Assembly (NCBI GenBank): GCA_964545975.1
Contig: CAZJHY010000001.1
Location: 24,094 to 88,093, forward strand
Direction: 5' to 3'
From: an uncultured Clostridia bacterium
Lineage (GTDB): Bacteria > Bacillota > DTU025 > MWDF01
DNA length: 64,000 nucleotides
Each line of letters starts with the position of its first letter. Position 1 is the stretch's first letter. The notes beneath the pieces are model-generated. The model did not search any database. It saw only the letters and a program-made list of their open reading frames with translations, and was not told where the DNA came from. Both the position numbers and the translations under genes were made by a program. Positions 10,415 through 28,617 of the stretch are shown here, in pieces.

Positions 10415-10437
10415 ACGCAGCCCTCCCTGTATGCTGC

Positions 10438-12151: not shown

Positions 12152-13162
12152 GTGAAGAGAACATTGTTAATCGCGGTTGTACTAGTCATGGCACTAACCA
12201 TCGTAACCGGCACTTTCGCAGCGACTACGCCTCTGTTGGTATCGGGCGGCGGTCTTAAGACGACCACTACCGTCAAGGCCAACTCGAAGTATCTCATCGC
12301 TTGCATCGTTAAGAACTCCACCAATCCTTACATGATCAAGCAGCTTGACGGCTTCAAAGCCGCCGGCGCATTCATGGGCTTCGACGCCGTCGCACTGGCT
12401 CCCGCCAAGGCCGACAACATCGAAGAGCAGGTCAAGATAATCGAAGACCTCATCCAGAAGGGCGTCAAGGGCCTCGTCATCCATCCTTCCGACTCCAACG
12501 GCATAGTCCCGATAGTCGAGAAGGCCATGTCGCTCGGCATCCCCGTGGTCGTAATAGGTACCCCGGCGAATACCGACAAGATATTCTTCCGCACCGGCAT
12601 GGACTATACCGACTCTGGCCGCAAGATCACCGAAGCTGCCATCCAGAAGATGGGCGGCAAGGGCAACGTCATAATACTTGAGGGCCCGCCCCAGGCGATC
12701 AACGCCAAGGAAAGGCTCAACGGCATGCTCGAAACTATAGCCAAGTACCCCGGCGTAAAGGTGCTTGACTCCCAGACCGCAAACTTCAACAGGCTCAACG
12801 CCCTCCAGGTCATGGAGAACCTCCTTCAGAAGCACAAGGACGTGCAGGGAGTCTTCGCGGCCAACGACGAGATGGCCCTCGGCGCGATCCAGGCTCTTGA
12901 AGCCGCCGGCAGGAAGAACGTGGTAGTCTCCGGCGTCGACGGAAGCAAGGACGCCTCGCAGGCGGTCCTCGAAGGCAGGCTCACAGTGACCTCGAATGCA
13001 GACCCCTATTCCAGCTCCTGGTGCGCCGCAGCATACATCGTGAAGTACTTGAACGACGGCACCATGCCGCCCTCCAAGTTCATCCCGTATCCCGCTGAAG
13101 TCGCCATCATCGACAAGAGCAACGTTCAGAACTACATCAACAACGACGCGTGGTGGAAGTAG
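12152..13162 (+). CDS. Sugar ABC transporter substrate-binding protein (RbsB-like, Peripla_BP_4)
   Basis: Signal peptide, GTG start after GGGGAGGG, and RbsB-like core sequences (VKNSTNPYM, AANDEMALGA, VSGVDGS). Confidence 0.88.
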   Translation: MKRTLLIAVVLVMALTIVTGTFAATTPLLVSGGGLKTTTTVKANSKYLIACIVKNSTNPYMIKQLDGFKAAGAFMGFDAVALAPAKADNIEEQVKIIEDLIQKGVKGLVIHPSDSNGIVPIVEKAMSLGIPVVVIGTPANTDKIFFRTGMDYTDSGRKITEAAIQKMGGKGNVIILEGPPQAINAKERLNGMLETIAKYPGVKVLDSQTANFNRLNALQVMENLLQKHKDVQGVFAANDEMALGAIQALEAAGRKNVVVSGVDGSKDASQAVLEGRLTVTSNADPYSSSWCAAAYIVKYLNDGTMPPSKFIPYPAEVAIIDKSNVQNYINNDAWWK

Positions 13163-13180
13163 TCTCATAGAAGTCCTGCT

Positions 13181-13210
13181 ATGGAGCCCTGTCGCAAGAC
13201 GGGGCTCCAT
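13181..13210 (+). promoter_or_regulatory. Intercistronic stem-loop after the substrate-binding protein gene
   Basis: ATGGAGCCC (13181-13189) pairs with GGGCTCCAT (13202-13210), a 9-bp stem. The ATG at 13181 is part of the stem, so it is unlikely to be the ATPase start. Confidence 0.55.
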
Positions 13211-13231
13211 GCACCCAAGGGGGCGTTATTT

Positions 13232-14752
13232 TTGGAGATAGTACCTATCCTCGAAGCGAGGAACATCAGCAAGGAGTTCCCGGGCGTAAAGGCGTTGGAT
13301 GAAGTATCCATACAGGTAAGGCCCGGCGAGGTCCATGTACTGATAGGAGAGAACGGGGCCGGAAAGAGCACGCTGTCCAAGATACTCATGGGAGTGTATA
13401 CCAGCGACAAGGGCGAGATCCTGTTCGATGGTAAGCCCGCCCACATTAGGAACCCTCATGACGCAAGGGCATTAGGCATATGCGGTGTCCATCAGGAGTT
13501 CATGCTTGTACCCTGGATGAACGTCGCACAGAACATCTTCATCAACAGAGAGCCCAGGATTTGGCCGGGGCTTCCCTTCATAGACCACAAGAAGATGCAC
13601 GAGGACAGCAGGAAGCTGCTTTCCTCCTTCAACGTGAACATCAACACCAAGCAGCCGGTGAAATACCTGGACACCGCGCTCCAGCAGATGGTGGAGATAG
13701 TAAAGGCGCTATCTACGAACCCCAAGGTCCTGATACTTGACGAACCGACTGCAGTCCTCACGGACAGGGAGGTCAACAGCCTCTTCGCCCATATAGAGGA
13801 GCTGAGAAGCCGAGGGGTTGCGATCATATACATATCGCACAGGCTTCCTGAGATCAGAAGGATAGGCGACAGGGTCACGGTCCTAAGAGACGGGAAGTAT
13901 GTAGCAACGGTTGACATCAAGGACACCCCCGACGAGGAGCTCATCAAGATGATGGTGGGCAGGAGCGTTTCGCAGCTTTATACCAGAAACCGCCAGGTTC
14001 CCGGGAAAGAGGCCCTGAGGCTTGAGAATTTCAGCGTGAAGGGCGGACCGCAGAATGTCGACCTGGTGCTGCACTACGGAGAGATCATTGGGCTTGCGGG
14101 CCTGATTGGTTCAGGGCGCACCGAGCTTGTCAGGGGCATCATGGGAATTGACCAGCAGACAGGCGGTTCCCTTTACATCGATGGCAACAAAGTCACGGTC
14201 GGAAGCCCTGACAAGGCGATAGGACTGGGGCTGGGGCTTCTGCCTGAGGACCGCAAGAGGTATGGCCTCGCCCTTAAGACGAACATCGCCTGGAATACCA
14301 TAATGGCGAGCCTCAAGCGGGAGTTCCCCAAGGGAGTAGTAAGGGAGCGCAAGGTGCGCGACATCGCCCAGGGCTATGTTAAGCAGCTGAAAATCGCCAC
14401 AGACTCGGTATCTAAGGTGGTGGGCTTCCTAAGCGGAGGCAACCAGCAGAAGGTTGTCGTCGCCAAGTGGATCAACACCAAGGCCAAGATCCTCATCTTC
14501 GACGAACCTACAAGGGGCATCGACGTGGGGGCCAAGGCAGAGGTGCACGCCCTCATGGACAAACTGGTGGCCGAAGGAAACGCGATCATAATGATTTCCT
14601 CCGACCTGCCGGAAGTCCTCGGGATGAGCGACCGCGTCTACACGATATTCCAGTGCCGTTCCATGGGGGACTGCTGCTTCCAGGAGGCGAACCAGCAGAG
14701 AATCGGCTCCCTTATGCTGGGAGTGGGGGTGAAGACAGATGCAAACCAGTAA
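13232..14752 (+). CDS. Sugar ABC transporter ATP-binding protein, duplicated ATPase (RbsA-like)
   Basis: Two nucleotide-binding domains are present (GENGAGKST; LSGGNQQKV; ILIFDEPTRGID). The preferred start is TTG 13232, 9 nt after AAGGGGG. The ORF itself opens at 13181. Confidence 0.88.
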   Translation: MEIVPILEARNISKEFPGVKALDEVSIQVRPGEVHVLIGENGAGKSTLSKILMGVYTSDKGEILFDGKPAHIRNPHDARALGICGVHQEFMLVPWMNVAQNIFINREPRIWPGLPFIDHKKMHEDSRKLLSSFNVNINTKQPVKYLDTALQQMVEIVKALSTNPKVLILDEPTAVLTDREVNSLFAHIEELRSRGVAIIYISHRLPEIRRIGDRVTVLRDGKYVATVDIKDTPDEELIKMMVGRSVSQLYTRNRQVPGKEALRLENFSVKGGPQNVDLVLHYGEIIGLAGLIGSGRTELVRGIMGIDQQTGGSLYIDGNKVTVGSPDKAIGLGLGLLPEDRKRYGLALKTNIAWNTIMASLKREFPKGVVRERKVRDIAQGYVKQLKIATDSVSKVVGFLSGGNQQKVVVAKWINTKAKILIFDEPTRGIDVGAKAEVHALMDKLVAEGNAIIMISSDLPEVLGMSDRVYTIFQCRSMGDCCFQEANQQRIGSLMLGVGVKTDANQ

Positions 14753-15704
14753 GCTCATGGGCTTTTTGAGGAAGGTCCCGCCGGCGACATACATCATACT
14801 GCTCATGATAGCCATATACGGCATCGCCGCGCCCGGCTTCTTCACCCTTGGAAACCTCGAGAACGTCGGAAACCAGGCGGCCCCCCTTCTCATCGTCGCC
14901 ATAGGTGTGACCATGGTCATCATGACGGAGGGTACAGACCTTTCGATCGGTTATGTGATGGGCATGGTCGGAGTCGTTGTATCGATTATGCTTAGGGCGA
15001 AAATCTGGATAGGCTGGGCGTTCCTTGCCGGCATCGCGGTAGGGGTGTTCTGCGGCTTCATAAACGGCGTCGCAGTCGCAAAGCTCAAGCTTCCTCCGTT
15101 CATTGCTACGCTTGGTACCGGAAACGTCATATTCGGAATAGGCCTCGTCATAACCGAAGGATACTCCATACAGGCACTTGATCCTGCGCTGCTTTTTCTG
15201 GCAAGCGGCAAGGTGTTCGGAATAAGCATGCCGATACTGATTGCCACGGTGGTCTTCGGGTTATGCTGGGTACTCATGAACTACACGCCGTTCGGGCGCA
15301 ACATAGTCTCTCTCGGAGGCAACTCCGAGGCGCTTAGAGGCGTTGGCCTTAACGTCGGGAAAGCCTCCATATCGGTATACATGATGTGTGGCTTCCTTGC
15401 GGCAATAGGAGGCCTCATAGTGGCGTCAAGGACAGGCTCAGGCTATTCGGCGGCTGCCATGGGATGGGAGTTCGACGCCATCGGAGCCAGTATAATCGGC
15501 GGTACATCCTTCGAGGAGGGCAATGGATCCATAAGCAGGACCGTAATTGGTGTCGCGCTCATATCGATACTCAGAAACGGCCTTAATGTCGTGGGCGTGC
15601 CGAACATGTACCAGTACGCGCTCATCGGCGCCATAGTGCTGACGGCCATAATCCTGGACGTTCGCTTCAGGCAGGCCGCGAAGGGAGGCGTCAAGAGAGT
15701 ATGA
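14739..15704 (+). CDS. Sugar ABC transporter permease (RbsC-like)
   Basis: Polytopic protein with the RbsC-type motif TGGIDLS/GTDLSIG. Confidence 0.9.
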   Translation: MQTSKLMGFLRKVPPATYIILLMIAIYGIAAPGFFTLGNLENVGNQAAPLLIVAIGVTMVIMTEGTDLSIGYVMGMVGVVVSIMLRAKIWIGWAFLAGIAVGVFCGFINGVAVAKLKLPPFIATLGTGNVIFGIGLVITEGYSIQALDPALLFLASGKVFGISMPILIATVVFGLCWVLMNYTPFGRNIVSLGGNSEALRGVGLNVGKASISVYMMCGFLAAIGGLIVASRTGSGYSAAAMGWEFDAIGASIIGGTSFEEGNGSISRTVIGVALISILRNGLNVVGVPNMYQYALIGAIVLTAIILDVRFRQAAKGGVKRV

Positions 15705-16696
15705 ACGAAGGTTCAAGGATGAAGGACACCCCCAAGGCGGTCGCAATCGTAAACGACAGGCTCAAGGCAAGGGAGGCCATAGCTCCCCTCTTCAGGCTCA
15801 CGTTCCTGATAGTCCTCATGATCGCACTTTCCATACTCAGCGAGGACTTCTTCACATGGAGCAACCTAATTAACGTTCTCAGGCAGTCGACTTTCCTGAT
15901 AGTAATCGGCCTCGGGCTCACAGGGGTGCTGCTTACCGGAGGCATCGACCTGTCCGTAGGCGGTGTGCTCGCATTCGTGGGCTGCGCGACTGGACAGATG
16001 ATGAGATCCGGCGTTCCGCTTTATCTTGCAGTGCCAATCGGTCTTCTAATCGGAGCGGGAGTCGGATGCTTCAACGGTTTCATGGTGGGGTACATCAAGC
16101 TTCCTCCGTTTGTGGCCACTTACGGTTCCAAGTGGATATCCGAGGGCATGGCGCTGCTTCTTATGCAGGGGCAGGTCATCTACGGCTTCCCGAGGGTGTA
16201 CCGCTGGATCGGCATCGGCTACATAGGACCCATACCAGTGCCCATCATAATTGCTGCCATCCTTGCGGTAATAATGAACTTCCTGTTCGTGAAGACCGTA
16301 TTCGGCAGGCAGGTATATGCACTGGGCGCCAACAAGGAAGCAGCATTCTACTCGGGCATCAAAGTCAAGAAGAACATCATGGTGGTATACACCCTTGCTG
16401 GCCTCATGGCGGGCATTGCCGGCCTTCTGATGCTTGCAAGGCTTGACGCCGCCGAGGTGAACATGGGAGAGGCCCTGCAGCTGCAGTCCCTCGCCGCGGT
16501 CATCATCGGGGGTGCATCCCTTCGCGGAGGCGAGGGCAGCATATTCGGCACGATAATTGGCGCCATAACCCTTACGCTGGTCGTAAACGGGCTTAACCTG
16601 CTTGGCGTGCGCTCTTTGTGGCACTCAGTGGTGCTCGGCGGCGTCATCCTGGCATCCGTGATAATGGACCTGCGCATGAAGAAGCTGGCGCAATAA
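15701..16696 (+). CDS. Sugar ABC transporter permease (RbsC-like, second copy)
   Basis: Polytopic protein with LTGGIDLSVGG. Its start forms an ATGA overlap with the upstream permease gene. Confidence 0.9.
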   Translation: MNEGSRMKDTPKAVAIVNDRLKAREAIAPLFRLTFLIVLMIALSILSEDFFTWSNLINVLRQSTFLIVIGLGLTGVLLTGGIDLSVGGVLAFVGCATGQMMRSGVPLYLAVPIGLLIGAGVGCFNGFMVGYIKLPPFVATYGSKWISEGMALLLMQGQVIYGFPRVYRWIGIGYIGPIPVPIIIAAILAVIMNFLFVKTVFGRQVYALGANKEAAFYSGIKVKKNIMVVYTLAGLMAGIAGLLMLARLDAAEVNMGEALQLQSLAAVIIGGASLRGGEGSIFGTIIGAITLTLVVNGLNLLGVRSLWHSVVLGGVILASVIMDLRMKKLAQ

Positions 16697-16727
16697 GGAT
16701 TAGCAGAAAGAAAAAGGAGGAACACCA

Positions 16728-17537
16728 ATGGCCAACCTTACGATCAGACCCATAAACACCGGTTACGCGGAAACCTACAAGAAGCAGTACCAGTACCATC
16801 ATTCTACCCACAAGTACCACAACGTCGACGACGGAAAGCTTCTTCTGCCCTGCATGGCATTCCTTATCGAGGGCGGAGACAAGCTCGTGCTGGTAGACAC
16901 CGGCATGTCCAACACCGAGATAGCCAACAAGTATCATCATCCGGGTTCGTACCAGCCTGACGGCTTTGCGATACATGAGCAGCTGGCGAAGCTGGGCATC
17001 AAGTGCGAGGACATCGACATTGTCATCTTCACGCACATGCACTGGGACCACATGCACAACATGGAGAAGTTCGTAAACGCCAGGTTCATCGCCCACAAGA
17101 AGGAATGGGAGTTCTGCCAGAACCCCATCCCGCTGTACTACAAATCATACGAGCATCCCAAGCTCGGCATAAAGGCTCCCTTCACTGGCCTTAAGATCGA
17201 GACCGTAGAGGGCGAGCAGGAGATAGTCCCCGGCATAAGGGTGTTCGAGAGCTTCGGGCATTCGCCGGGCCACATGTCCGTGGAAGTCGACTGCGAGGAC
17301 GGATCCTACATCCTCTGCGGCGATGCGGTATTCATCTACGACAACCTTAAGCCCGTGCCGGACATGTTCTATGAGATTACTCCCCCGGCCAGGTATGCCA
17401 ACATCGTCGAGTGCTGGAACAGCATAGTCGAGATGAAGCATAGGGCCAAGGAGCAGCGCTTCATACTGCCCTCCCATGAGCCTGAGATAGAGGAGCTCGC
17501 GAAGAAGTACGGAACTTTCCCGATACCCAAGAAGTAA
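16728..17537 (+). CDS. Metallo-beta-lactamase-fold hydrolase, lactonase-like (AiiA/UlaG-type fold)
   Basis: The HxHxDH motif appears as THMHWDHMHN. GHSPGH, CGD and SHEP follow, in the order expected for the zinc ligands. Confidence 0.8.
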   Translation: MANLTIRPINTGYAETYKKQYQYHHSTHKYHNVDDGKLLLPCMAFLIEGGDKLVLVDTGMSNTEIANKYHHPGSYQPDGFAIHEQLAKLGIKCEDIDIVIFTHMHWDHMHNMEKFVNARFIAHKKEWEFCQNPIPLYYKSYEHPKLGIKAPFTGLKIETVEGEQEIVPGIRVFESFGHSPGHMSVEVDCEDGSYILCGDAVFIYDNLKPVPDMFYEITPPARYANIVECWNSIVEMKHRAKEQRFILPSHEPEIEELAKKYGTFPIPKK

Positions 17538-17619
17538 CATCACACCGATTGGGGGTGCGGCCGGGAGGCAGGTCCAAGGGGGCGCGGGCCTCCGAAGACA
17601 GCCAACCCGGCCTTGTCAT

Positions 17620-18843
17620 ATGAAGACTATCGCAGTGATAACCTCGCTGGACACGAAGGGGAAAGAGACCCTCTATATAAAGGATGCGATCGAGAGGTTC
17701 GGCTCGAAGGCTCTCATCATAGACGTAGGGGTCAAGGAGCCGCCATATTTCACGCCTGATATCGCAAGGCACGAGGTGGCCGCCGCCGCCGGCATCGACT
17801 GGGATACGGTGAAGGACAAGGAGAAAAGGGTGAGGATAAGCACCATGACCTCAGGCCTTGAGGTGCTTATACCCAAGCTATATGCCGAGGGGAAGCTTTC
17901 GGCCGTGTTCTCGATGGGAGGCCTTCAGAACACAACGATGGGAACATCGGCGATGAAGACCCTGCCGCTCGGGGTGCCTAAGCTCATGCTTTCCACGATG
18001 GCGTCCAGCAACAGGCCTTTCGGTCCGTTCGTGGGAACCAAGGACATGACCCTCATGCACTCGGTGGGCGACATCCTAGGGGTAAACCCCGTCACCAAGG
18101 CCGTGATGGATAACGCCGTCGGAGCCATCGTGGGGATGGCGGAGCACGCCGGAAACAGGGTGCAGAAAACTGACAGGATCCTTGTGGGTGCCACTATGCT
18201 CGGCGTAACGAACGACGGAGTGAGCCGCGCGGTATCCTACCTCGAGGAGGCAGGCTACGACGTGGTCACCTTCCATGCGAACGGTGCGGGAGGACCGGCC
18301 ATGGAGGAGCTCATAGGACAGGACACGATAGACGCCGCGATGGATCTTACGCTGCATGAGATAGACGCTGAATTCTTCGGGGGGCACTGTTCGGGGGCGA
18401 CCAACAGGCTCCTTATGGCCGCCGAGAAGGGGATACCCCAGGTTGTTTCGCTTGGTGCCTCCGACGTCATAGACTATGAGGTCGTGGACCTCGACAAGGT
18501 AAGGGAGTATGGAAGGCGCAAGTTCGTCTATCAGCACCCCACCATCCAGCACATAAAGCTCATAGAGGAAGAGGCGCACAAGGTCGGGACGGTAATCGGG
18601 GAGAGGCTCTCAAAGGCCAAGGGTCCCCTAACCCTCGTCATACCTAGGGGAGGCTTCCACCAGAGCAGCTACAAAGGCGGTCCCATATGGGATCCTGCCA
18701 TCGACGAGATAATCATAGGACACATACTAAGCAGGATTGCGCCTTCCACAAGGGTGGTAGAGACCGCAGCCCATATCAACGAGCCCGCCTTCAGCAGGGT
18801 GGCGGCCGATGAGATGATTAAGCTTCTGAAGGCCATGCGCTAA
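17620..18843 (+). CDS. UPF0261 / Tm-1-like ATP-binding domain protein
   Basis: The N-terminus MKTIAVITSLDTKGKE matches my memory of the UPF0261 family. The length is about 400 aa. This call rests on recollection, not a search. Confidence 0.7.
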   Translation: MKTIAVITSLDTKGKETLYIKDAIERFGSKALIIDVGVKEPPYFTPDIARHEVAAAAGIDWDTVKDKEKRVRISTMTSGLEVLIPKLYAEGKLSAVFSMGGLQNTTMGTSAMKTLPLGVPKLMLSTMASSNRPFGPFVGTKDMTLMHSVGDILGVNPVTKAVMDNAVGAIVGMAEHAGNRVQKTDRILVGATMLGVTNDGVSRAVSYLEEAGYDVVTFHANGAGGPAMEELIGQDTIDAAMDLTLHEIDAEFFGGHCSGATNRLLMAAEKGIPQVVSLGASDVIDYEVVDLDKVREYGRRKFVYQHPTIQHIKLIEEEAHKVGTVIGERLSKAKGPLTLVIPRGGFHQSSYKGGPIWDPAIDEIIIGHILSRIAPSTRVVETAAHINEPAFSRVAADEMIKLLKAMR

Positions 18844-18875
18844 GCAGGGCCAGAAGCCTCACAAGGAGGATTCCG

Positions 18876-20132
18876 ATGTTCTACGGACTGCCTTTCGACA
18901 ACCCCGAGTCCATTTATGGCAGGGATTACGTTCTGGGCACCTATTTCGTGACCGGCGTCACAGGAGACGATGCGCTTAATAAGCTGGGCATGTTTGCAGT
19001 CGGCCAGTCCACCGGCACGTGGATGCCGGTGCCCGGCATAACCAGGCAGATGGTGGAGGATCATCAGGGAAGAGTCGTCGGATGCTATCCGGTGCCCGCC
19101 CAGGAGCCCGGCGCCTACGTTCTTAGGGTGGCGTTTCCCTACAGCAACATAGGCGGGTCCATCTCGATGCTGCTTACCACGCTTGCGGGAAACGACGCTT
19201 CGACTGCGCTGTGCGCGAAGCTCATAGACGTGGAGCTTGTCGGCAAGGCGAAGTCGGCCTTCCACGGTCCGCACTTCGGAATAGACGGGGTGAGGAAGCT
19301 CACGGGAGTCTACGACAGGCCCATAGTCATGAATATGATCAAGCCTTGCACGGGCTTTCCGGCTACGGCAGGGGCGGAGTTCTTCTACGCGTCCGGATCA
19401 GGCGGCGTAGACATAATAAAAGATGACGAGCTTATGGGCAACACCAGCTTCAATTCCGTCGCCGACAGGGTGAGGGAGTATGGTAAGGCTCAAGCGAGAA
19501 TCGGAGGAGAGAGGGGCAAGGCCCCTATATACCTTCCCAATGTGACCGACAGGCACGATAAAATGCGCGACAACATCAAGGCGGCGATAGACGGCGGAGC
19601 GAAGGGCGTCATGGTCAACTTCGTCTTCACCGGACTCGACAGCCTTGCCGCGCTTACATCGGAGTTCGGCGACAAGGTGATGTTCCTCGCTCATGCGGCA
19701 GGAGTTGGCGTCATGACCGGTTATCCGCAGGGCTTAAGCACCTCGCTTCTTCTAGGAAGGCTCGGAAGGCTGGCAGGCGCGGACGCGGTGGTCACCCTTT
19801 ATCCTCTCGGCATGGGAGGAGACGGCTTCCAGGAGCTTCAGATGACGGTGCAGAAGCACAGGCTGCCTCTGGGAGATGTCAAGCAAGCCTTGACCGTGGT
19901 CGGAGGAGGCGTCACGCCGCTTACCGTACCGTTTGCGGTGAAGAGCTTCGGCAAGGACATAATCATCGCCGTTGGCGGTGGCATCCAGGGCCACCCGGAC
20001 GGGGCGACGGCAGGCGCAAAGGCCATGATGGCTGCGGTGGATGCGACCATGAAGGGCGTAAGCCTGGAAGACGCGGTTAAGGACAGCCCGGAGCTCGGAA
20101 GGGCGATAACCAGATGGGGCAAGAAGGCTTAA
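18876..20132 (+). CDS. RuBisCO-like protein (form IV RLP)
   Basis: Three blocks align without gaps, by eye, to RbcL: RPIVMNMIKPCTG...GGVDIIKDDE, TVVGGGV and AVGGGIQGHPDG. The protein is only 418 aa. No small subunit, phosphoribulokinase or cbb genes are nearby. Confidence 0.85.
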   Translation: MFYGLPFDNPESIYGRDYVLGTYFVTGVTGDDALNKLGMFAVGQSTGTWMPVPGITRQMVEDHQGRVVGCYPVPAQEPGAYVLRVAFPYSNIGGSISMLLTTLAGNDASTALCAKLIDVELVGKAKSAFHGPHFGIDGVRKLTGVYDRPIVMNMIKPCTGFPATAGAEFFYASGSGGVDIIKDDELMGNTSFNSVADRVREYGKAQARIGGERGKAPIYLPNVTDRHDKMRDNIKAAIDGGAKGVMVNFVFTGLDSLAALTSEFGDKVMFLAHAAGVGVMTGYPQGLSTSLLLGRLGRLAGADAVVTLYPLGMGGDGFQELQMTVQKHRLPLGDVKQALTVVGGGVTPLTVPFAVKSFGKDIIIAVGGGIQGHPDGATAGAKAMMAAVDATMKGVSLEDAVKDSPELGRAITRWGKKA

Positions 20133-20154
20133 GGGCCGCCCGAATGATGACCGT

Positions 20155-20793
20155 ATGGAGGTAAAGCAGATGGAAGATCTTATCATGAGCATAAAAAGGG
20201 ACGTGGAGCTCGCCTGCAGGAGGGCGTACACGAGGGGAATACAGACCGGAAGCGGCGGAAACGTCAGCGCAAGGATACCGGGCACGGACCATATGATAGT
20301 GAAGCCAAGCAAGGTGTCGCTCATCGAATGCGACCCCGAGACGCTTATCATAACCGACTTCGACGGAAACTTGGTGCAGGGCTCTCTTCCTCCTACGAGG
20401 GAGGCGGTGCTTCACGGCTGGCTGTATAAGAAGTTCGGCAAGATCGGAGCGGTGGTTCACACCCATTCGCCCTGGGCTATATCCTGGTCCTTCACCAGGA
20501 GGGACCTTCCCAATATTACCATGCATACTCAGCTTAAGCTGGGATGCCCCATCCCGGTCAGGTTCTTCTCCAGCCCCAAGGGGGTTCTGAAGGAGGAGAT
20601 GCCAGAAGTCTACGGCCTTTTCGAGAAGGAACCGAACCTCGCCGCCTTCATACTCGGTGCGCACGGTGTGGTCGCAGTCGGCGACAATATCATAGAGGCC
20701 GAGCACACGGCGGAGCTCATAGAGGAGACGGCACAGATAGCATACCTGCACGAGATGGGATTGAAGCTCGGGATGTTCCCCGAGGGCAGATAA
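20155..20793 (+). CDS. Class II aldolase/adducin-domain protein
   Basis: Motifs GSGGNVSAR and VVHTHSP. Confidence 0.85.
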   Translation: MEVKQMEDLIMSIKRDVELACRRAYTRGIQTGSGGNVSARIPGTDHMIVKPSKVSLIECDPETLIITDFDGNLVQGSLPPTREAVLHGWLYKKFGKIGAVVHTHSPWAISWSFTRRDLPNITMHTQLKLGCPIPVRFFSSPKGVLKEEMPEVYGLFEKEPNLAAFILGAHGVVAVGDNIIEAEHTAELIEETAQIAYLHEMGLKLGMFPEGR

Positions 20794-20822
20794 GACGAAG
20801 ACAATCCGAACGGAGTGATCAT

Positions 20823-21284
20823 ATGTACAGGAAGATGGTAATAGGCTGCGACGAGGCGGCCTGTGAGCTGAAAAACGCCCTTATCGAGGTCCTTAAGAAG
20901 AAGGGAATTGAGTATGAGGACGTCGGAGTGCCGGATGCAAGCGACAAGACCTATTATCCCCTGGTGGCAGAGAAGGTGGCCGAGGCGATAATAGAAAGCG
21001 GCTATGAGAAGCACGGGATGCTCCTCTGCGGAACGGGCATCGGCATGGCCATATCCGCGAACAAGCACCCCGGGGTATTTGCCGCTGTATGCCACGACCA
21101 GTATTCTACCGAGAGGGCGAAGCTGAGCAACAACTGCAACGTCATCTGCATGGGGGCAAGGGTCATAGGGCCAGAGCTTGCCAAGAAGAACCTGGAGCAA
21201 TGGCTTGAGCTGACGTTCAAGGACGGCTCCTCGACCCCTAAGGTGGAGGCTGTGAAGGATATCGAGAAGAGGCATATGAAATGA
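20823..21284 (+). CDS. RpiB/LacA/LacB-family sugar-phosphate isomerase
   Basis: MVIGCDEAA, and LLCGTGIGMAISANK containing the catalytic Cys. The start is ATG 20823. The longer ORF from 20544 overlaps the aldolase gene and is rejected. Confidence 0.88.
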   Translation: MYRKMVIGCDEAACELKNALIEVLKKKGIEYEDVGVPDASDKTYYPLVAEKVAEAIIESGYEKHGMLLCGTGIGMAISANKHPGVFAAVCHDQYSTERAKLSNNCNVICMGARVIGPELAKKNLEQWLELTFKDGSSTPKVEAVKDIEKRHMK

Positions 21285-22075
21285 GGAGCCCGCTTCTTGT
21301 CGGCACGAACCTCAAGATGTACAAGGGCGTGAAGGAGACGCTGGAGTTCCTTTCGCGCCTTGCGGGAAACGTCAGCCACATAGGCAGCGAAGACATGACG
21401 CTCTTCGTCATACCCTCCTACCTTGCCCTTCATGCGGCATGCGGGTCTGATGCGCACAGCAGGATACTCCTTGGCGCGCAGAATCTGCACTGGGAGGACT
21501 CCGGGCAGTTCACCGGTGAGATATCCCCCATGATGCTCAAGGAGATAGGCATAGATATCGCTGAGATCGGCCACTCGGAACGAAGGCAGCTTTTCGGTGA
21601 GACGGACGTGACAGTGGGGCTTAAGGCCAAGGCAGCGCTCAGGCACGGCATGAGGGCCCTGGTATGCATAGGGGAGACCGCAGACGACAAGGCGTCGGGC
21701 ATTACCTATGAGAAGCTGAGGATGCAGGTGAAGGTGGCCTTAAAGGGGATTTCTGCGGATGAGCTCGAGGGGCTTTGGGTAGCATACGAGCCGGTATGGG
21801 CCATCGGGATCCACGGGGTCCCGGCTGAGCCCGGATACGCCGAGAAGAGCCACAGGATGATAAAAGACGTGCTGGAAGAGCTTTACCCTAATAAGGGCGC
21901 AGGCGTTCCCGTGCTGTACGGCGGAAGCGTCAACATGGAAAACGCCATGGAGCTCATCGTCCAGCCGAGCATAGACGGCTTGTTCATAGGAAGGACCGCT
22001 TGGGACGCGGACAGGTTCGCGTCGCTGATCAAGGATGTCCTCCCCTTGTGGAAGGCCAAGGCTGAGAGAGAATAG
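21281..22075 (+). CDS. Triosephosphate-isomerase-family protein (TpiA/EryH/LerI-like)
   Basis: Motifs NLKMY, GHSERR, AYEPVWAIG and YGGSVN. Its start forms an ATGA overlap with the RpiB-like gene. Confidence 0.88.
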   Translation: MRSPLLVGTNLKMYKGVKETLEFLSRLAGNVSHIGSEDMTLFVIPSYLALHAACGSDAHSRILLGAQNLHWEDSGQFTGEISPMMLKEIGIDIAEIGHSERRQLFGETDVTVGLKAKAALRHGMRALVCIGETADDKASGITYEKLRMQVKVALKGISADELEGLWVAYEPVWAIGIHGVPAEPGYAEKSHRMIKDVLEELYPNKGAGVPVLYGGSVNMENAMELIVQPSIDGLFIGRTAWDADRFASLIKDVLPLWKAKAERE

Positions 22076-22104
22076 GGCAAGGCTTACGAAGGCGGTGTGA
22101 TGCA

Positions 22105-22776
22105 ATGGCGGACATGGTCATGGAGGCGAAAAGGCAGTTAATAGAGATCGGAAGGCAGATAGCTGCCAAGGGACTTGTGATAGGACCCGGCGGAAATACC
22201 AGCTTAAGGGCAGGCGCCCTCATGGTGATATCCGCCAGCGGCTCTTCATTCGAGTGCTCCGACGAGAGCGACTACGTCGCGATAGACATAGAGACAGGAA
22301 AACAGGCCGACGGCGGCAAGAGGCCGTCTTCCGAAGTGCTGATGCACCTTGAGTGCTACAGGAGGCGCCCGGATGTAAACGCTGTAGTCCATACCCATCC
22401 GACGTGGTCGACATCTGTAGCAAGCTCGGGCACCAAGATGCCCCCGATGTTCCCGGATTACGTCGTGTTCGTGGGCAAGCCCGCGACCCTGGATTACGTG
22501 ATACCGACGACGAAGCTTCTGGCCGATGCCGTGGCCGAAGTCATAGGGGAGCATAATGTGGTGCTCATGAGCAATCACGGGGTGCTTGCCGTCGCAGGCG
22601 ACCTCAAGATGGCGCTATTAAGGGTGGAGCTGGCAGAGGAGAACGCAAGGATGCTCGTGATAGCAAACTCCCTCGGCAAGCCGCGATCCCTTACGGATGC
22701 CGAAGTCCAGGCGATATTTGACCTGGAGAGCGAGAAGTACAGGCAGAGGCTTCTGAAAAACGAGGGCGGGAAGTAG
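22105..22776 (+). CDS. Class II aldolase/adducin-domain protein
   Basis: Motifs GPGGNTSLR and VVHTHP. Confidence 0.85.
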   Translation: MADMVMEAKRQLIEIGRQIAAKGLVIGPGGNTSLRAGALMVISASGSSFECSDESDYVAIDIETGKQADGGKRPSSEVLMHLECYRRRPDVNAVVHTHPTWSTSVASSGTKMPPMFPDYVVFVGKPATLDYVIPTTKLLADAVAEVIGEHNVVLMSNHGVLAVAGDLKMALLRVELAEENARMLVIANSLGKPRSLTDAEVQAIFDLESEKYRQRLLKNEGGK

Positions 22777-22798
22777 TCCTAAAAAGGAGGACGCACCA

Positions 22799-24271
22799 TT
22801 GTCCGACAGGCTTTTCATGGGGATAGACGTGGGCACGGGCGGAGCCAGGGTCATAGTCTGCGACGAGTACGGGTTGCCCCTGGCGGAAAGCTCGAGGCCG
22901 TTTGCCGCAGGTGCCGGCGCATCTGACATGCCCCAGGGCTGGCATCAGCAGTCGCCCGCAGCCTGGTGGGACGCGACTTCCGCATGTATAAGGCAGGTCA
23001 TGGGCTCACCCGGACTCGGCGGAAATCCTGGCAGGGTGTTCTCTGTTTCCGTCACATCCACATCAGGTACTGTGATCCCGCTTAGGGAGGATTGCGAACC
23101 GCTCTGGGATGCGGTCATGTACAACGACAGCAGGTCGTCCGCGCAGGCGGAAAGGGCGAACGAGGCGCTTAAGGAATTATGCGGGAAGCTCGCCTACAGG
23201 TTCGACACATCCTTCGGGCTTCCGAAGATGCTATGGTTCATGGACAGCAAGCCTGAGCTGTTCAGAAGGACCAGATTCTTCGTCCACGCTGGCGATTATA
23301 TTATCGGGAAGCTCTGCGGCTGCTTCGGTTTCACCGACTATTCCAACTCGCTGAAGTCTGGATACGACATCGATGAGCTGATATGGCCGAAGGAGATAGA
23401 GGAGAAACTGGGCGTCCCGGCGTCCAAACTGCCGGAAGTGCTCGCCCCGGGCACGGTAGTCGGGAAGGTCTGCGCCGCCTGCTCCGCAGAGACGGGCCTT
23501 CCGGAAAGCACCAACGTCGCGCTGGGCATGACGGACGGCTGCGCCTCGCAGATTGCATCGGGTGCCGCGTCCTTAGGCGACTGGAACACCACGATCGGCA
23601 CAACGCTTGTAATCAAGGGGGTCACCGAGAGGCTCCTCTTCGACCCGAAGGGAAGGATATACAGCCACAGGCATCCCGACGGGCACTGGATGCCAGGCGG
23701 GGCCAGCAACGTCGGCGGCGACTGCATAAGAAGCAACTTCCGCGACGATGAGCTGGATACGCTGAACGCGTCCGTGCGCCCTGAGAAGCCGACAGGCATG
23801 CTGGTGTACCCTCTGGAGAAGAAGGGCGAGAGGTTCCCGAACAGAGATCCTTTGGCAGAGGGGTTCATAATGGGAAGCCCATCAGGAAGGCCCGAGCTCT
23901 ATCAGGCCTACCTTGAGGGTGTTGCGCTGGTGGAGAAGATGTCATACGAGATGCTTCAGAGCTTGGGGGCGGCAATCGGTGACACGATCTTTGCGGCGGG
24001 AGGCGCCACGAAAAGCGAGCCATGGCTCAAGGTAAGGTCGAATATGCTCGACCGGCGCATTGCAGTCCCGGAGATTGCAGGAGGATTCATGGGAGCCGCC
24101 ATACTAGCAGCTTCCCTCTCCCATTGGGGCTCGCTCGGTGAGGCTGCCAAAAACATGGTAAAAATTTCCAAGACGATATGCCCGGACCCTGCCGCTGTCG
24201 ATGCCTATAAGGATAAGTACGGGCAGTTCATAAGAGAGATGGGAAGCAGGGGATATACCCTGGAGGGATGA
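22799..24271 (+). CDS. FGGY-family carbohydrate kinase
   Basis: N-terminal MGIDVGTGGARV and C-terminal FAAGGATKS, typical of xylulokinase/ribulokinase-type kinases. TTG start after AAGGAGG. Confidence 0.85.
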   Translation: MSDRLFMGIDVGTGGARVIVCDEYGLPLAESSRPFAAGAGASDMPQGWHQQSPAAWWDATSACIRQVMGSPGLGGNPGRVFSVSVTSTSGTVIPLREDCEPLWDAVMYNDSRSSAQAERANEALKELCGKLAYRFDTSFGLPKMLWFMDSKPELFRRTRFFVHAGDYIIGKLCGCFGFTDYSNSLKSGYDIDELIWPKEIEEKLGVPASKLPEVLAPGTVVGKVCAACSAETGLPESTNVALGMTDGCASQIASGAASLGDWNTTIGTTLVIKGVTERLLFDPKGRIYSHRHPDGHWMPGGASNVGGDCIRSNFRDDELDTLNASVRPEKPTGMLVYPLEKKGERFPNRDPLAEGFIMGSPSGRPELYQAYLEGVALVEKMSYEMLQSLGAAIGDTIFAAGGATKSEPWLKVRSNMLDRRIAVPEIAGGFMGAAILAASLSHWGSLGEAAKNMVKISKTICPDPAAVDAYKDKYGQFIREMGSRGYTLEG

Positions 24272-24275
24272 TGAT

Positions 24276-25673
24276 ATGAGCATTTACAAGGCCTGCGACA
24301 TAAGGGGAGTCTACCCTTCGTCGCTCGACGAGAAGACGTCATACGATATAGGAGCGGCTTTGGGGGAGATGCTCGGCCCTGTAAGCATGCTCGTCGCAGG
24401 CGACGTGAGGGTCAGCACGCCGCCTTTGAAGCAAAGCCTTATAAACGGCCTTGTGGACGCCGGATGCGAAGTAGTGGACATCGGCATGGCCCCGACCCCG
24501 GCCTTCTACTACGCGCTTCATAAGCTGGGCACCGAGTCGGGCGTGACGGTGACGGCATCCCATAATCCGGCCAAGTACAACGGCTTCAAGATAGCGCCGC
24601 ACGGGCAGCCCATGACTGAAGACGTGATGGACGACCTGAGGAAGATGGTCGAAGCTGGAGGATTCAAGCCATATGGGCAAGGGAGCGTAAGGAAGGCTGA
24701 GGTCATCGAGGATTACAAGAGATTCGTGCTTGATAAGATAGGAGAGCTAACGGGAACGAAGTGCAGCGCTCATGGTTCGAGTAATGCCCTCAAAGCCGTG
24801 GTGGACTGCGGCAACGGCTGCTACAGCACGATAGCCCCTGAAGTTCTAAGGCAAGCTGGCATCGCGGTTGAGGAGCTCTATTGCTGGGAGGATGGAACTT
24901 TCCCTAACAGGGAGCCAAACCCAGCTGTAGCTGAGAATCTCGAGGCTTTATGCGGCAAGGTCAGAGATACGGGGGCAGACCTTGGCATTGCCTTCGACGG
25001 GGACGGTGACAGGGTGGTCTTCGTGGACGAGCTGGGCAAAGTGGTCCCTAGCGACAATGCGATAGCACTTTTCGCCGGCTTCCTCCTTAAGAATCACCCC
25101 GGCTCGAAGGTGGTTTTCGACATCAAGTGCTCAAGCCTTGTGTCGGATTCGATCAAGGCGGCGGGCGGCATTCCAGTGATGGAGAAGTCAGGCCACGCTT
25201 ACATCAAGAACAACCTGCTGAGAAACGGCGCGGTTTTCGCAGGCGAGATCAGCGGGCACTTCTTCTTCCAGGTGCTCAAGGGGGATGACGGGCTGTTCGC
25301 GGCTCTTCTGATGGCCGAGATCATGATGTCGGAGGGCAGAAGCCTGGGGAAGATGGTGGAGTCGCAGCCGAAGTACTTCACTACAAGAGACTTCAGGATA
25401 CCGTTCTCGGGGAGCACGGCCGAGCTGTTCGGAAGGCTCAAAGCGCGCCTTGAGGCAAGCGGAGGCGCAAACCTGTCGTACCTGGACGGCATAAGGGCGG
25501 AGTTTTCTGAAGGCTGGGGGCTTATAAGGGCATCAGTCACTGAGCCACTGGTTACGCTGAGGTTCGAGGGGAAGTCGTTGGAGAGCCTTGATAGGATAAG
25601 GGATAGCTTCCTTGCTGCAGATGAGGACTTGCTTGATGCCGTAAGGGAGGTTTGGGCAAACCATCTTCCTTAG
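24276..25673 (+). CDS. Phosphomannomutase/phosphoglucomutase-family phosphosugar mutase
   Basis: Active-site loop TASHNPAKYNGFK, metal loop FDGDGDR and GEISGH. Confidence 0.9.
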   Translation: MSIYKACDIRGVYPSSLDEKTSYDIGAALGEMLGPVSMLVAGDVRVSTPPLKQSLINGLVDAGCEVVDIGMAPTPAFYYALHKLGTESGVTVTASHNPAKYNGFKIAPHGQPMTEDVMDDLRKMVEAGGFKPYGQGSVRKAEVIEDYKRFVLDKIGELTGTKCSAHGSSNALKAVVDCGNGCYSTIAPEVLRQAGIAVEELYCWEDGTFPNREPNPAVAENLEALCGKVRDTGADLGIAFDGDGDRVVFVDELGKVVPSDNAIALFAGFLLKNHPGSKVVFDIKCSSLVSDSIKAAGGIPVMEKSGHAYIKNNLLRNGAVFAGEISGHFFFQVLKGDDGLFAALLMAEIMMSEGRSLGKMVESQPKYFTTRDFRIPFSGSTAELFGRLKARLEASGGANLSYLDGIRAEFSEGWGLIRASVTEPLVTLRFEGKSLESLDRIRDSFLAADEDLLDAVREVWANHLP

Positions 25674-25685: not shown

Positions 25686-26372
25686 CTACTTCTCGGTGAA
25701 CTCCCTCATATAGCACTCGTATTTGCTGCAGTTCACCTGTATTCTCCTGTTTACGCTCCGGATGAATCCTTCGTTGGCAAGCTCGTTCATTAGCTTGCTT
25801 ACGGTCACCCTTGCAGCTCCTACGATGACTCCCAGCTCATAGTGCGTGTATCTCACCTTGAGCTCATACCAGCCGGGGTCGGCCTCGGCTTCCCTGTCGA
25901 CAGAGGAGCAGAGAAGCCTTGCTATCCTGTCCTTGCATGAGTTGAAGGTCAGGTTTTCAATCTCGAACCTGGTAATCAGGAGCTTCGTCGCCAGGCAACG
26001 GATGAATGCGTCCCTGAAGACAGCGCTGCTGTCCAGAAGCTGCCTCACCTTGTCCGGCGGTATCTTGCAAAGGACGACATCGGTCTCGGCTTGGGAGTAA
26101 AGTCCGGTCTTCCTTCCCAGGTAGAAGCCCATCTCACCGAAGAGCCAGCCCGGAGTGAGAGCATAGAGGACCTTTTCAAGCCCGTCCTCGTTCGCCATGA
26201 AATGCTTGGTCCTGCCCGACTTGATGTACAAGACGCCGCCGAAATCGCTCCCGGGCACAGAGAAGAGCGTCTTGGCAGGATAGGTAACCCTAATCGAGTT
26301 CTGCTCGATTATCTTCTCCAGTGCCTCGTTGTATGCATCGGGCATTAAGAGCCCCGTCTCCTCAAGGCGCAA
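25686..26372 (-). CDS. Crp/Fnr-family transcriptional regulator
   Basis: It has a cNMP-binding-like beta-barrel (GWLFGEMGF) and a C-terminal helix-turn-helix (THYELGVIVGAARVTVSKLMNEL). Confidence 0.85.
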   Translation of the reverse strand: MRLEETGLLMPDAYNEALEKIIEQNSIRVTYPAKTLFSVPGSDFGGVLYIKSGRTKHFMANEDGLEKVLYALTPGWLFGEMGFYLGRKTGLYSQAETDVVLCKIPPDKVRQLLDSSAVFRDAFIRCLATKLLITRFEIENLTFNSCKDRIARLLCSSVDREAEADPGWYELKVRYTHYELGVIVGAARVTVSKLMNELANEGFIRSVNRRIQVNCSKYECYMREFTEK

Positions 26373-27513: not shown

Positions 27514-27602
27514 GCTCGAAAGACCTGATCGAATAGAATTGGCAAGTTGCTTCGAAGCATAGTGGGAAGCAGATAAAAAGAAACGAAGGAGGAAGACCTG
27601 TC

Positions 27603-28577: not shown

Positions 28578-28594
28578 GCTTCCTTAAAGCAGCA

Positions 28595-28617
28595 GAGGGG
28601 CCGGAAACCGGCCCCTC
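28595..28617 (+). promoter_or_regulatory. Intercistronic perfect 10-bp GC hairpin after the solute-receptor gene
   Basis: GAGGGGCCGG-AAA-CCGGCCCCTC, located between the stop at 28577 and the permease start at 28626. Confidence 0.55.

Follow-up and report, generated by a model that had tools for sequence, protein, structure and literature searches.

A conserved gene cluster around a RuBisCO-like protein

The window analysed here, a 64,000-nucleotide stretch of DNA from an uncultured Clostridia bacterium, contains a cluster of 13 genes that encodes an RbsB-type ATP-binding cassette (ABC) transporter and a group of putative catabolic enzymes, with a form IV RuBisCO-like protein (RLP) at its centre. 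This cluster is a real and widely conserved transport-plus-catabolism unit, found mainly in Bacillota. The reading that we favour, with somewhat less than even confidence, is that of a catabolic operon that would convert an imported sugar-like compound into D-erythrose-4-phosphate (erythrose-4-P) without any redox step, the RLP acting as a C3 epimerase.

The 13 open reading frames (ORFs) lie co-directionally on the + strand between 12152 and 25673, and only the start of the RpiB gene had to be corrected, from the mechanical ORF start at 20544, inside the aldolase gene, to a likely ATG at 20823 that follows a GGAG motif. Coordinates, Pfam domains and spacing confirm the tight packing with two ATGA overlaps noted in the preliminary description: the gene-to-gene distances are, in order, 18, -14, -4, 31, 82, 32, 22, 29, -4, 29, 22 and 4 nt, the overlaps fall at 15701 and 21281, and the widest intergenic gap is 82 nt. 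Consensus scans of the cluster for promoters and terminators gave background level only, with no convincing + strand terminator inside it. Pfam detected an oxidoreductase domain in none of the 13 products.

Metagenome contigs scanned with a sequence pattern yielded at least 328 confirmed relatives of the RLP, of which 80 were kept, and a single-sequence scan of genome contigs gave only 5 loci; an exact look-up of the window RLP gave no match. The window proteins were compared by tblastn with 88 loci (designated below by L numbers), and all the ORFs of these loci were clustered. The RLP homologues are many, mostly from Bacillota metagenome-assembled genomes (MAGs), and the clade is frequent in gut and plant-litter metagenomes. 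The recurrent unit in the 88 loci consists of an RbsB-type ABC system, a metallo-beta-lactamase (MBL)-fold protein, a UPF0261 protein, the RLP, an RpiB-family protein, a triosephosphate isomerase (TIM)-like protein and then a single class-II-aldolase-fold protein, here named AldII_a, and the usual final gene is that of a GntR/FCD regulator (20 loci) or of a GpsA-like dehydrogenase. Dozens of independent contigs have this gene set around an RLP homologue (40-82% identity), and the kinase gene stands directly 5' of the RLP gene in most loci. Neighbours were counted within 8 kb of the RLP in the 23 loci that extend for at least 3 kb on either side of it: UPF0261 is present in 17 of the 23, either UPF0261 or an FGGY kinase in 21, RpiB and/or TIM in 16, and MBL, UPF0261 and AldII_a together in 10, with no case of AldII_a without UPF0261. 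The UPF0261-RLP-aldolase-RpiB-TIM block, whose conservation across genomes the preliminary description had put up for testing, is strongly co-conserved.

As a unit of 13 genes the operon holds only in part, since the conserved unit, the core shared across about 95 related loci, comprises 10 of them, and the other three, a second aldolase-fold protein (AldII_b), the FGGY kinase and a phosphomutase, are a lineage-specific add-on. AldII_b was found only in the window and in its near relatives L002, the closest of all, and L006, and the FGGY and phosphomutase genes in these three and in L027. The core cluster is carried by the cultured Hydrogenispora ethanolica and also by a Negativicutes MAG. In the gut MAG Candidatus Bariatricus faecipullorum the cluster is present but TIM and RpiB are not nearby; the AldII_a sequence of this MAG is found in 216 indexed blocks of the sequence collection.

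Some further neighbours were recorded. An aldehyde:ferredoxin oxidoreductase (AFOR) gene (3 loci) and the GpsA-like dehydrogenase gene (8 loci, seven of them closely related and many from peat) recur within narrow lineages only. The AFOR gene, together with a small partner ORF, lies in or beside the RLP cluster at 14471-16360 of L008/L024 and at 5546-7435 of L038, and it hints at an aldehyde by-product in some lineages. For the bicupin and LarA-like genes that lie upstream of the cluster in H. ethanolica, a check for recurrence among the loci was negative. The GntR regulator gene is often followed by another MBL-fold gene (Lactamase_B), different from the first one (L027, 15686-16609; L029, L088, L090 and L091). 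In L090/L091 it gives Anti-Pycsar_Apyc1-like matches, and in L027 it stands alongside a tripartite ATP-independent periplasmic (TRAP) transporter, an FGGY kinase and a mutase, in a locus without UPF0261 and AldII_a.

Active-site signature of the RLP

The RLP at the centre of the cluster was confirmed as form IV: it has a RuBisCO_large domain, keeps K201, D203 and E204 and is devoid of the residues for carboxylation. Its scores stay below the cutoffs of the MtnW models NF007095 (265.8 bits, cutoff 409) and TIGR03332 (220 bits, cutoff 513.6), of the form III RuBisCO model TIGR03326 (206.8 bits, cutoff 497) and of the OiaX model NF042437 (128 bits, cutoff 700), and its nearest characterised relatives by sequence are the MtnW enzymes. 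On the missed cutoffs and the distinct active-site signature, the RLP is assigned to a separate clade and is neither MtnW, nor OiaC/OiaX, nor a carboxylase.

Residues were numbered by mapping on the form I RuBisCO enzyme found in L005. The clade retains T65, W66, N123, K175, K201, D203, E204, H294, G380/381 and G403/404, carries Gln for E60, Cys for K177 and an invariant Asp directly after N123, and has lost R295, H327, K334 and S379. In the window protein, K177 is Cys, R295 is Ala, H327 is Val, S379 is Gly and the equivalent of K334 is absent, with the KDDE motif kept. All the RLPs in a family of 72 share this one signature irrespective of their genomic context. In RuBisCO, the residues kept here make up the enolisation machinery and the proximal phosphate site (P1), and those lost belong to the distal phosphate site (P2) and to CO2 handling. 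Since the P1 site and the enolisation residues are kept and the P2 site and the carboxylase residues are lost, the pattern fits a monophosphate of the type P-O-CH2-CO-CH(OH)-R, i.e., a 1-phospho-2-keto-3-hydroxy compound. A known side reaction of RuBisCO is misprotonation of the enediol at C3, which gives xylulose bisphosphate, and for this reason C3 epimerisation would be a natural reaction for such a protein.

Tyr or Phe occupies the R295 position (residue 274 of the window protein) in nearly all the clade members, Ala in the window and Gly in L002, and this exchange could give the window/L002 lineage a larger or different distal pocket.

Two assignments of the RLP were considered and discarded. 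A role as MtnW in methionine salvage disagrees with the scores below the model cutoffs, with the missing catalytic Lys and with the different gene context: the N123 position holds an invariant Asn in the clade and a Lys in three MtnW-type chains, and we take this Lys to be the catalytic one (K98 in G. kaustophilus). A carboxylating RuBisCO in a pentose-bisphosphate route is discarded because the carboxylase and P2 residues are lost. In the RLP of the R. etli apionate cluster, Gly occupies the N123 position and R295 is retained.

At NCBI, the only name found for the RLP homologues was 'RuBisCO large subunit C-terminal-like domain-containing protein', and automatic annotation calls some of them '2,3-diketo-5-methylthiopentyl-1-phosphate enolase'. 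A 2023 review of RLPs records enolase, isomerase, decarboxylase/transcarboxylase and oxygenase activities only (PMC10176493). The enzyme of the cluster may carry out a reaction so far unrecorded for RLPs.

The terminal isomerases

The preliminary description had proposed that the TIM-like and RpiB-like pair points to erythrose-4-P, and the closest solved relative of the TIM-like protein bears this out. This relative is annotated as L-erythrulose-1-phosphate isomerase (11ef/11eg/13gn) and scores 202.5 bits, with triosephosphate isomerases reaching at most 179. The window protein and 11ef have in common an unusual loop-8 motif, DGLFIGR[ST]AW, and Arg238 is invariant in the 31 copies of the cluster (31/31). 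The NCBIfam label is that of a triose-phosphate isomerase (NF000722, 295.8 bits, cutoff 293). The best plasmid-borne relatives, at 49-51% identity, are TIM paralogues within tetrulose clusters. One of these clusters, on plasmid p42f of R. etli CFN42, encodes NanR (GntR/FCD-type), an RLP (oiaX in RefSeq), a four-carbon acid-sugar kinase, TIM, RpiB, an RbsB-like binding protein, an ABC system, a Gfo/Idh/MocA protein and DhaKL; a P. multocida locus encodes DhaKL, a TIM-barrel protein, RpiB, a TRAP transporter, TIM, tal and tkt.

The RpiB-like protein shares 53% identity with the RpiB of the P. multocida locus and 45% with that of the R. etli cluster. It scores 150.9 bits with the DerI model NF051858 (cutoff 240) versus 124.1 with the rpiB equivalog (cutoff 138.65), and passes the RpiB subfamily model only.

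The TIM-like protein is most likely a LerI-type L-erythrulose-1-P isomerase, and the RpiB-like protein is probably a D-erythrulose-4-P isomerase of the DerI/EryI type. Because the TIM-like protein is closest to an L-erythrulose-1-P isomerase and shares its loop-8 motif, the pathway most likely ends with the conversion of L-erythrulose-1-P into D-erythrulose-4-P and of the latter into erythrose-4-P. These are steps of the Brucella and Mycobacterium pathways (PMC5992420, PMC10733421).

Other operon contexts of the RLP clade

RLPs of the same clade are also found in operons of another kind. Metagenome contigs L055 (1-15300) and L071 (1-7653) carry genes for a transketolase, RpiB, a LerI-type TIM, a DeoR regulator, the RLP, an FAD enzyme resembling glycerol-3-P oxidase and accompanied by Pyr_redox_2 and DUF1667 partners, an FGGY kinase and a phosphotransferase system (PTS) EIIA protein. 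Neither an EryC-like gene nor acid-handling genes were found on these contigs, which look like Ery-like polyol operons with the RLP in the slot that EryC has in Brucella. L003 contains FGGY, RLP, TIM and RpiB only; L075 contains FGGY, a 2-hydroxyacid dehydrogenase, RpiB, TIM and RLP; and the more distant FGGY kinases sit in polyol-type loci.

It had been suggested that the RLP decarboxylates or rearranges its substrate. Since the clade sits in polyol operons without acid-handling genes, the second half of this suggestion, in the form of an EryC-like C3 epimerase or isomerase, is favoured, and an obligatory decarboxylase role is disfavoured.

L057 (1-18420) shows a PTS-dependent variant that encodes a PRD/EIIA regulator, an EIIC-GAT permease, RpiB, the RLP, a 209-aa protein of no assigned family, a class II aldolase and a haloacid dehalogenase (HAD) phosphatase of the Cof type; a kinase is absent from this locus.

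Uptake, lactone opening and phosphorylation

The secreted substrate-binding protein begins with a GTG start after AGGGGAGGG, followed by a signal-peptide-like N-terminus. It scores 153 bits with the RbsB equivalog (cutoff 337), its best solved match is the ribose-binding protein 2ioy, and its identity to the R. etli substrate-binding protein encoded beside the oiaX cluster is 30%. The Asp/Arg pair of ribose-binding proteins, which presumably makes the ribose contacts, is missing, and because of this loss the ligand is predicted to be a compound other than ribose. An autoinducer-2 (AI-2, Lsr) system was discarded, with a score of just 43.6 bits for the LsrB model and with LsrF/LsrG absent.

The MBL-fold protein is the most conserved enzyme of the cluster. 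Its nearest relatives in NCBIfam and PDB are gamma-lactonases of the 4-pyridoxolactonase and AiiA types, all far under cutoffs, and the best 120 of its 467 homologues have 56-97% identity. Separate homologue searches with the MBL protein and with AldII_a gave hundreds of close relatives. An RLP was present in every context of such a homologue that was opened, and for this reason both families look specific to this system.

The UPF0261 protein matches NF002674, named only 'hypothetical protein' in NCBIfam (June 2026). Its solved relatives are Tm-1 and 9mpy (152.7 bits, labelled 'UPF0261 domain-containing protein'), the latter of which we take to be MarK, and its Lys13 aligns with Lys16 of chain 9mpy. 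The ATP contact is position 16 in MarK E16K and K20 in Tm-1, and MarK, an ATP-dependent kinase of aromatic monomers, is the lone UPF0261 protein with a shown catalytic activity (PMC12624787). The two-domain fold is shared by the window protein, which natively carries the ATP-contact Lys as well (native in Tm-1, introduced in the activated MarK E16K), and from these features it is predicted to be an ATP-dependent kinase. It differs from MarK, which acts on aromatic monomers, in having sugar and sugar-phosphate enzymes as neighbours.

The FCD-type regulators of 20 loci and the TRAP transporter of L027 suggest an acid intermediate, and the gamma-lactonase relatives of the MBL protein likewise speak for a lactone or acid substrate.

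The aldolase-fold proteins, the FGGY kinase and the phosphomutase

In AldII_a, the Zn-binding His residues H102, H104 and H170 and the catalytic E83 are invariant (34/34), and the phosphate pocket is altered, K50 (31/34) and R82 (30/34) replacing the canonical residues, which we take to be T43/G44 and S71/S72 in FucA numbering. No FucA model reaches its cutoff, the OtnC model NF043034 gives 84.9 bits (cutoff 250) and the matches to MtnB models are weak (71 bits). All the three aldolase-fold proteins in and beside the cluster have the aldolase-type Glu, not the epimerase-type Asp. AldII_b finds its best NCBIfam match in FucA, with 130 bits (cutoff 264). The FGGY kinase scores 194 bits with the XylB model (cutoff 380), and the phosphomutase, which accompanies FGGY in L002, L006 and L027, scores 354 bits with the archaeal-type GlmM model (cutoff 439).

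Proposed pathway

In the pathway that we propose, all of whose reactions, as well as the order of AldII_a and RLP and the substrate, are inferred, the substrate would most likely be a keto or branched acid sugar in the form of its gamma-lactone or free acid. The RbsB-type ABC system would import this compound, the MBL-fold hydrolase would open the lactone and the UPF0261 kinase would phosphorylate the primary hydroxymethyl group beside the carbonyl. AldII_a, as a Zn-enediolate enzyme, would then take off the extra carbon as CO2 or as an aldehyde, yielding a tetrulose-1-phosphate with the stereochemistry typical of the fold, i.e., D-erythrulose-1-P. The RLP would form the 2,3-enediolate at a carbamylated-Lys/Mg site and reprotonate it to L-erythrulose-1-P, taking the slot of EryC in Brucella. 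The LerI-type TIM paralogue would convert L-erythrulose-1-P into D-erythrulose-4-P, and the DerI-type RpiB paralogue would yield erythrose-4-P. A second, related substrate may enter through an accessory route made up of the FGGY kinase, the PGM/PMM-like mutase and the FucA-like AldII_b.

AldII_a is placed upstream of the RLP because the RLP pairs with LerI/RpiB in loci devoid of AldII_a, and because AldII_a is confined to loci with MBL and UPF0261. It is known that the class II aldolases FucA and RhaD yield D-erythrulose-1-P, and that epimerisation by EryC is needed before LerI and DerI can act (PMC10733421). With no oxidoreductase in the cluster, the entry compound must already be at the oxidation level of a tetrulose plus CO2 or an aldehyde, as would be the case for a keto-lactone, a lactone of the reductone type, a uronolactone or a ketose ester. 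The sequence neither supports nor excludes as substrates ascorbate, dehydroascorbate/2,3-diketogulonate, erythroascorbate and uronolactones, or apiose/apionate, aceric acid, tetronates and isosaccharinates.

Several observations weigh against this pathway. No core enzyme can create the keto group that the RLP requires. The RpiB-like protein stays under the DerI cutoff and its solved relatives are ordinary RpiBs. AldII_a is about equidistant from 6btd ('fuculose phosphate aldolase'), 6vop ('aldolase') and AraD epimerase structures, so that the roles of AldII_a and RLP could be reversed; we take 6btd to be the DrdA aldolase and 6vop the YgbL/OtnC decarboxylase. Some loci (L060, L079, L080 and L094) have MBL, UPF0261, AldII_a and RLP but no LerI/RpiB nearby, and erythrose-4-P may therefore not be the sole exit in them, while L027 combines the RLP with a TRAP transporter and has no AldII_a. 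Finally, clade RLPs of L049/L051 (human gut) and of L041/L045/L076 occur in two contexts without TIM or RpiB, one with Amidohydro_2, PF09370 (PEP_hydrolase-like), UPF0261 and MBL, and the other with MBL, a DeoC-family aldolase and pairs of UPF0261 and of URO-D-like genes. As the same signature occurs in such contexts, the RLP clade may not be isofunctional.

A far-reaching form of the proposal joins three statements: that the RLP epimerises D- to L-erythrulose-1-P, a reaction type not yet recorded for RLPs; that the UPF0261 protein is the first sugar or acid-sugar kinase of its family; and that, with the help of a dedicated lactonase and an aldolase-fold lyase, anaerobic Bacillota convert a lactone into erythrose-4-P in a redox-free manner. 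We regard this combination as possible and rather doubtful. The lactone might be an ascorbate-family reductone or a branched plant-wall sugar acid. If it were true, a misprotonation side reaction of RuBisCO would have been turned into a physiological function, and anaerobic Bacillota of gut, peat and digesters would use an abundant lactone as a source of erythrose-4-P.

Comparison with known erythrulose and tetronate pathways

Among the known RLP pathways that were checked (MtnW, the R. rubrum isomerase, OiaC/OiaX with DUF1537 and the hamamelose oxygenase), none uses the gene set of the window, in agreement with the earlier statement. Full-text searches found no literature linking an RLP to UPF0261/Tm-1, to a lactonase or to erythritol/erythrulose, and we found no paper and no curated family model that describes the cluster.

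The erythritol set of Brucella consists of EryA, EryB, EryC, EryH(TpiA2) along with EryI(RpiB) (PMC5992420). Erythritol and tetritol catabolism, in Brucella and in M. smegmatis (LerK-LerI-DerI), resembles the proposed pathway in the terminal pair of TIM and RpiB paralogues, and the FGGY kinase and glycerol-3-P-oxidase-like enzyme of L055/L071 parallel EryA and EryB. The difference is that EryC, a xylose-isomerase-like barrel, is absent and the RLP stands in its slot, and that a lactonase and a UPF0261 kinase take the place of the polyol kinase and dehydrogenase in the window.

The synthetic erythrulose monophosphate (EuMP) module is composed of FucA/RhaD, EryC, LerI and DerI (PMC10733421). The contiguous RLP-RpiB-TIM-AldII genes would fill the same four slots if the RLP is an epimerase. 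However, the EuMP module is engineered and assimilates formaldehyde, whereas the block of the window is natural and lies within an uptake operon, and the phosphate pocket of AldII_a is altered (K50, R82).

Tetronate pathways use OtnK (DUF1537) and OtnC, a class II aldolase-fold decarboxylase (PMC12994016). They likewise place a kinase before a class-II-aldolase-fold enzyme that acts on a phosphorylated keto acid, and 6vop is among the nearest structures of AldII_a. They differ in the dehydrogenase and OtnI, absent here, in the Ala of the 6vop chain that aligns with the Glu of AldII_a, and in the product, which for the window is probably a tetrulose phosphate and not dihydroxyacetone phosphate.

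What appears new relative to the known RLP sugar routes ending in erythrose-4-P is the presence of four uncharacterised, system-specific enzyme families. These clades (RLP, UPF0261, MBL and AldII_a) are represented in hundreds of contigs from metagenomes of peat, digesters and the gut of animals or humans, and adjoin two isomerases that can be named with some confidence. Few RLP reactions have been recorded, and UPF0261 has a single shown activity, on aromatics. The pay-off of studying the system could be a new RLP function, the first sugar-related UPF0261 kinase and a nutrient of common anaerobes, with H. ethanolica as a culturable host of the core cluster and with possible natural parts for synthetic C1 assimilation through erythrulose monophosphate.

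Alternative interpretations

The alternative that fares best, which we hold to be rather unlikely, is a variant of the oxidative D-apionate-type route, in which the RLP would be an OiaC-like beta-keto-acid decarboxylase that feeds L-erythrulose-1-P to LerI/DerI, and AldII_a an auxiliary epimerase or an erythrulose-1-P aldolase. The oxidative D-apiose/D-apionate pathway, reportedly described by Carter et al. in 2018, comprises the lactonase ApnL, ApnO, the DUF1537 kinase OiaK, the RLP OiaC/OiaX, LerI and DerI. The two systems have in common the RbsB-type ABC uptake, a GntR/FCD-type regulator (in most of the related loci), a lactonase step, an acid-sugar kinase beside the RLP, TIM and RpiB paralogues leading to erythrose-4-P, so that LerI-type and DerI-type genes neighbour the window RLP as they neighbour OiaC/OiaX, and Gln at the E60 position of both RLPs. 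The R. etli p42f locus is closely parallel in layout (regulator, RLP, acid-sugar kinase, TIM, RpiB and RbsB-like ABC system), with identities to the window of 49% for TIM, 45% for RpiB and 30% for the substrate-binding protein, which in R. etli we take to be the apiose binder of Carter et al. 2018. A decarboxylase role is also in line with the kinase gene immediately upstream of the RLP at most loci, with the joint presence of hydrolase, UPF0261 and RLP even without TIM/RpiB, and with the acid indicated by the FCD regulators and the TRAP system. Moreover, decarboxylation and epimerisation would proceed via a common enediolate and might both reside in one enzyme; the two roles are not mutually exclusive, because both reactions pass through this one intermediate.

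Nevertheless, the identity between the window RLP and its R. etli counterpart is only 31% over 263 residues, the score of 128 bits for the window protein falls far short of the 700-bit OiaX cutoff, and the active-site losses are different, N123 being kept and R295 lost in the clade and the reverse being found in R. etli. The window kinase is UPF0261 and not DUF1537, the lactonase has the MBL fold and is not an amidohydrolase, there is an extra class-II-aldolase-fold enzyme, and an oxidoreductase of the ApnO/ApsD type is lacking. Of the DUF1537 kinase and the Gfo/Idh/MocA oxidoisomerase that the R. etli locus encodes, neither occurs in the window or in the related loci that were examined. Furthermore, RLPs with the same signature are encoded in polyol-type operons without any acid-handling gene, which is the context that favours the C3 epimerase.

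A second possibility, which we consider improbable, is an ABC-dependent counterpart of the Ula/Yia pathway of L-ascorbate, with the MBL protein as UlaG, a kinase in place of the PTS, the RLP in place of UlaD and/or UlaE and an aldolase-fold protein as UlaF, leading to a pentulose-5-P. Such a route would start from a lactone without need of a redox step, both MBL and class-II-aldolase-fold proteins are present, the habitats of the clade (gut and plant litter) are compatible with it, and OtnC-type enzymes decarboxylate 3-keto-hexonate-6-P in vitro (PMC12994016). Yet the RLP has no P2 site, which a 5- or 6-phosphate substrate would need, and the LerI-type TIM implies a tetrulose, not a pentulose. 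The Ula/Yia parallel drawn in the preliminary description is in fact weak: OMPDC-family (UlaD) and UlaE-type genes are absent from the cluster by Pfam and NCBIfam, the MBL protein is nearer to AiiA and 4-pyridoxolactonase, with the UlaG model not among its matches, and all the aldolase-fold proteins have Glu where epimerases have Asp.

Very improbable, in our opinion, is a sugar analogue of the MtnK/MtnB/MtnW steps of methionine salvage, in which the UPF0261 kinase would give a ketose-1-P, AldII_a would dehydrate it to a 2,3-diketo-1-phosphate and the RLP would tautomerise the product. Both systems contain a triad of kinase, class-II-aldolase-fold enzyme and RLP, the MtnW enzymes are the nearest characterised relatives of the RLP, AldII_a keeps the Glu of aldolases and MtnB along with its weak MtnB matches, and in L057 and L094 the RLP has a HAD phosphatase-like gene in its vicinity. 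However, the clade has an invariant Asn where MtnW has its catalytic Lys, the context differs, equivalents of MtnA, MtnX and MtnD are not conserved and the sulfur and dioxygenase steps are absent. The tight link to the LerI-type TIM and RpiB would be left unexplained, as a diketo-deoxy product needs further enzymes to feed them.

Finally, a chance mosaic of sugar genes, or an ordinary MtnW or carboxylating RuBisCO, is scarcely credible: the automatic 'enolase' annotation of homologues and the 3 of 13 genes outside the conserved core would speak for it, and it is contradicted by a core conserved in order and content in dozens of divergent contigs from at least 3 lineages, by the unmet equivalog cutoffs and by the absence of the catalytic residues of both enzymes.

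Gene content and flanking genes

The 13 genes and the two flanking genes are listed in Table 1. The divergent aldolase gene and the convergent Crp/Fnr gene reported earlier at the flanks were both confirmed by Pfam, but both are retained only in L002 (60% and 75% identity, respectively). The best NCBIfam models of the divergent aldolase are FucA or L-ribulose-5-P 4-epimerase, all under cutoff, and its association with the cluster is weak; the link of the Crp/Fnr regulator to the cluster is uncertain, a GntR/FCD regulator being found instead in 20 other loci.

Table 1. Genes of the RLP cluster and its immediate flanks (window coordinates)
Predicted product	Position	Strand	Evidence
Class II aldolase paralogue, FucA-like, PSVE motif, divergent	11066-11713	-	Pfam Aldolase_II, 163.5 bits
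CUT2-type (RbsB-like) secreted substrate-binding protein	12152-13162	+	Pfam Peripla_BP_4, 200.5 bits
ABC transporter ATPase, two ABC domains	13181-14752	+	Pfam ABC_tran, two stretches; synteny conserved
ABC permease 1	14739-15704	+	Pfam BPD_transp_2
ABC permease 2, ATGA overlap with permease 1	15701-16696	+	Pfam BPD_transp_2
MBL-fold lactonase-like hydrolase	16728-17537	+	Pfam Lactamase_B
UPF0261 (Tm-1/MarK-type) predicted ATP-dependent kinase	17620-18843	+	Pfam UPF0261, 183.6 bits; UPF0261_C, 207.5 bits
RuBisCO-like protein (RLP), form IV	18876-20132	+	Pfam RuBisCO_large, 135.8 bits; RuBisCO_large_N, 21.2 bits
AldII_a, class-II-aldolase-fold enzyme	20155-20793	+	Pfam Aldolase_II
RpiB-family isomerase	20823-21284	+	Pfam LacAB_rpiB
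TIM-like isomerase, putative LerI-type	21281-22075	+	Pfam TIM
AldII_b, FucA-like class II aldolase, canonical PSSE motif	22105-22776	+	Pfam Aldolase_II, 145.8 bits
FGGY-family carbohydrate kinase, TTG start	22799-24271	+	Pfam FGGY_N/C
PGM/PMM-family phosphomutase	24276-25673	+	Pfam PGM_PMM I-IV
Crp/Fnr-family regulator, convergent	25686-26372	-	Pfam cNMP_binding and HTH_Crp_2

The window also contains other gene groups around the cluster. Upstream, a + strand operon (329-9868) encodes a LacI regulator, an aminotransferase of class I/II, an M24-like peptidase of 572 aa, a LIV-type ABC transporter with its binding protein, two permeases and two ATPases, and a lyase of the dihydrodipicolinate synthase (DHDPS) family. 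A MarR-family regulator and a glutathione peroxidase are encoded on the minus strand (9992-10971), between this operon and the divergent aldolase gene. Downstream, at 26599-30506, a second DHDPS-family lyase gene precedes a TRAP system of the TAXI type, made up of an NMT1_3 binding protein and a fused DctM of 626 aa. A hydroxy-acid cluster lies at 40483-53095 and encodes a D-2-hydroxyacid dehydrogenase, a LarA-like nickel-pincer racemase/epimerase, an HMGL-like lyase and a LIV-type binding protein (43960-45099), followed by unannotated ORFs and by proteins of the acetate-kinase and altronate/galactarate-dehydratase families.

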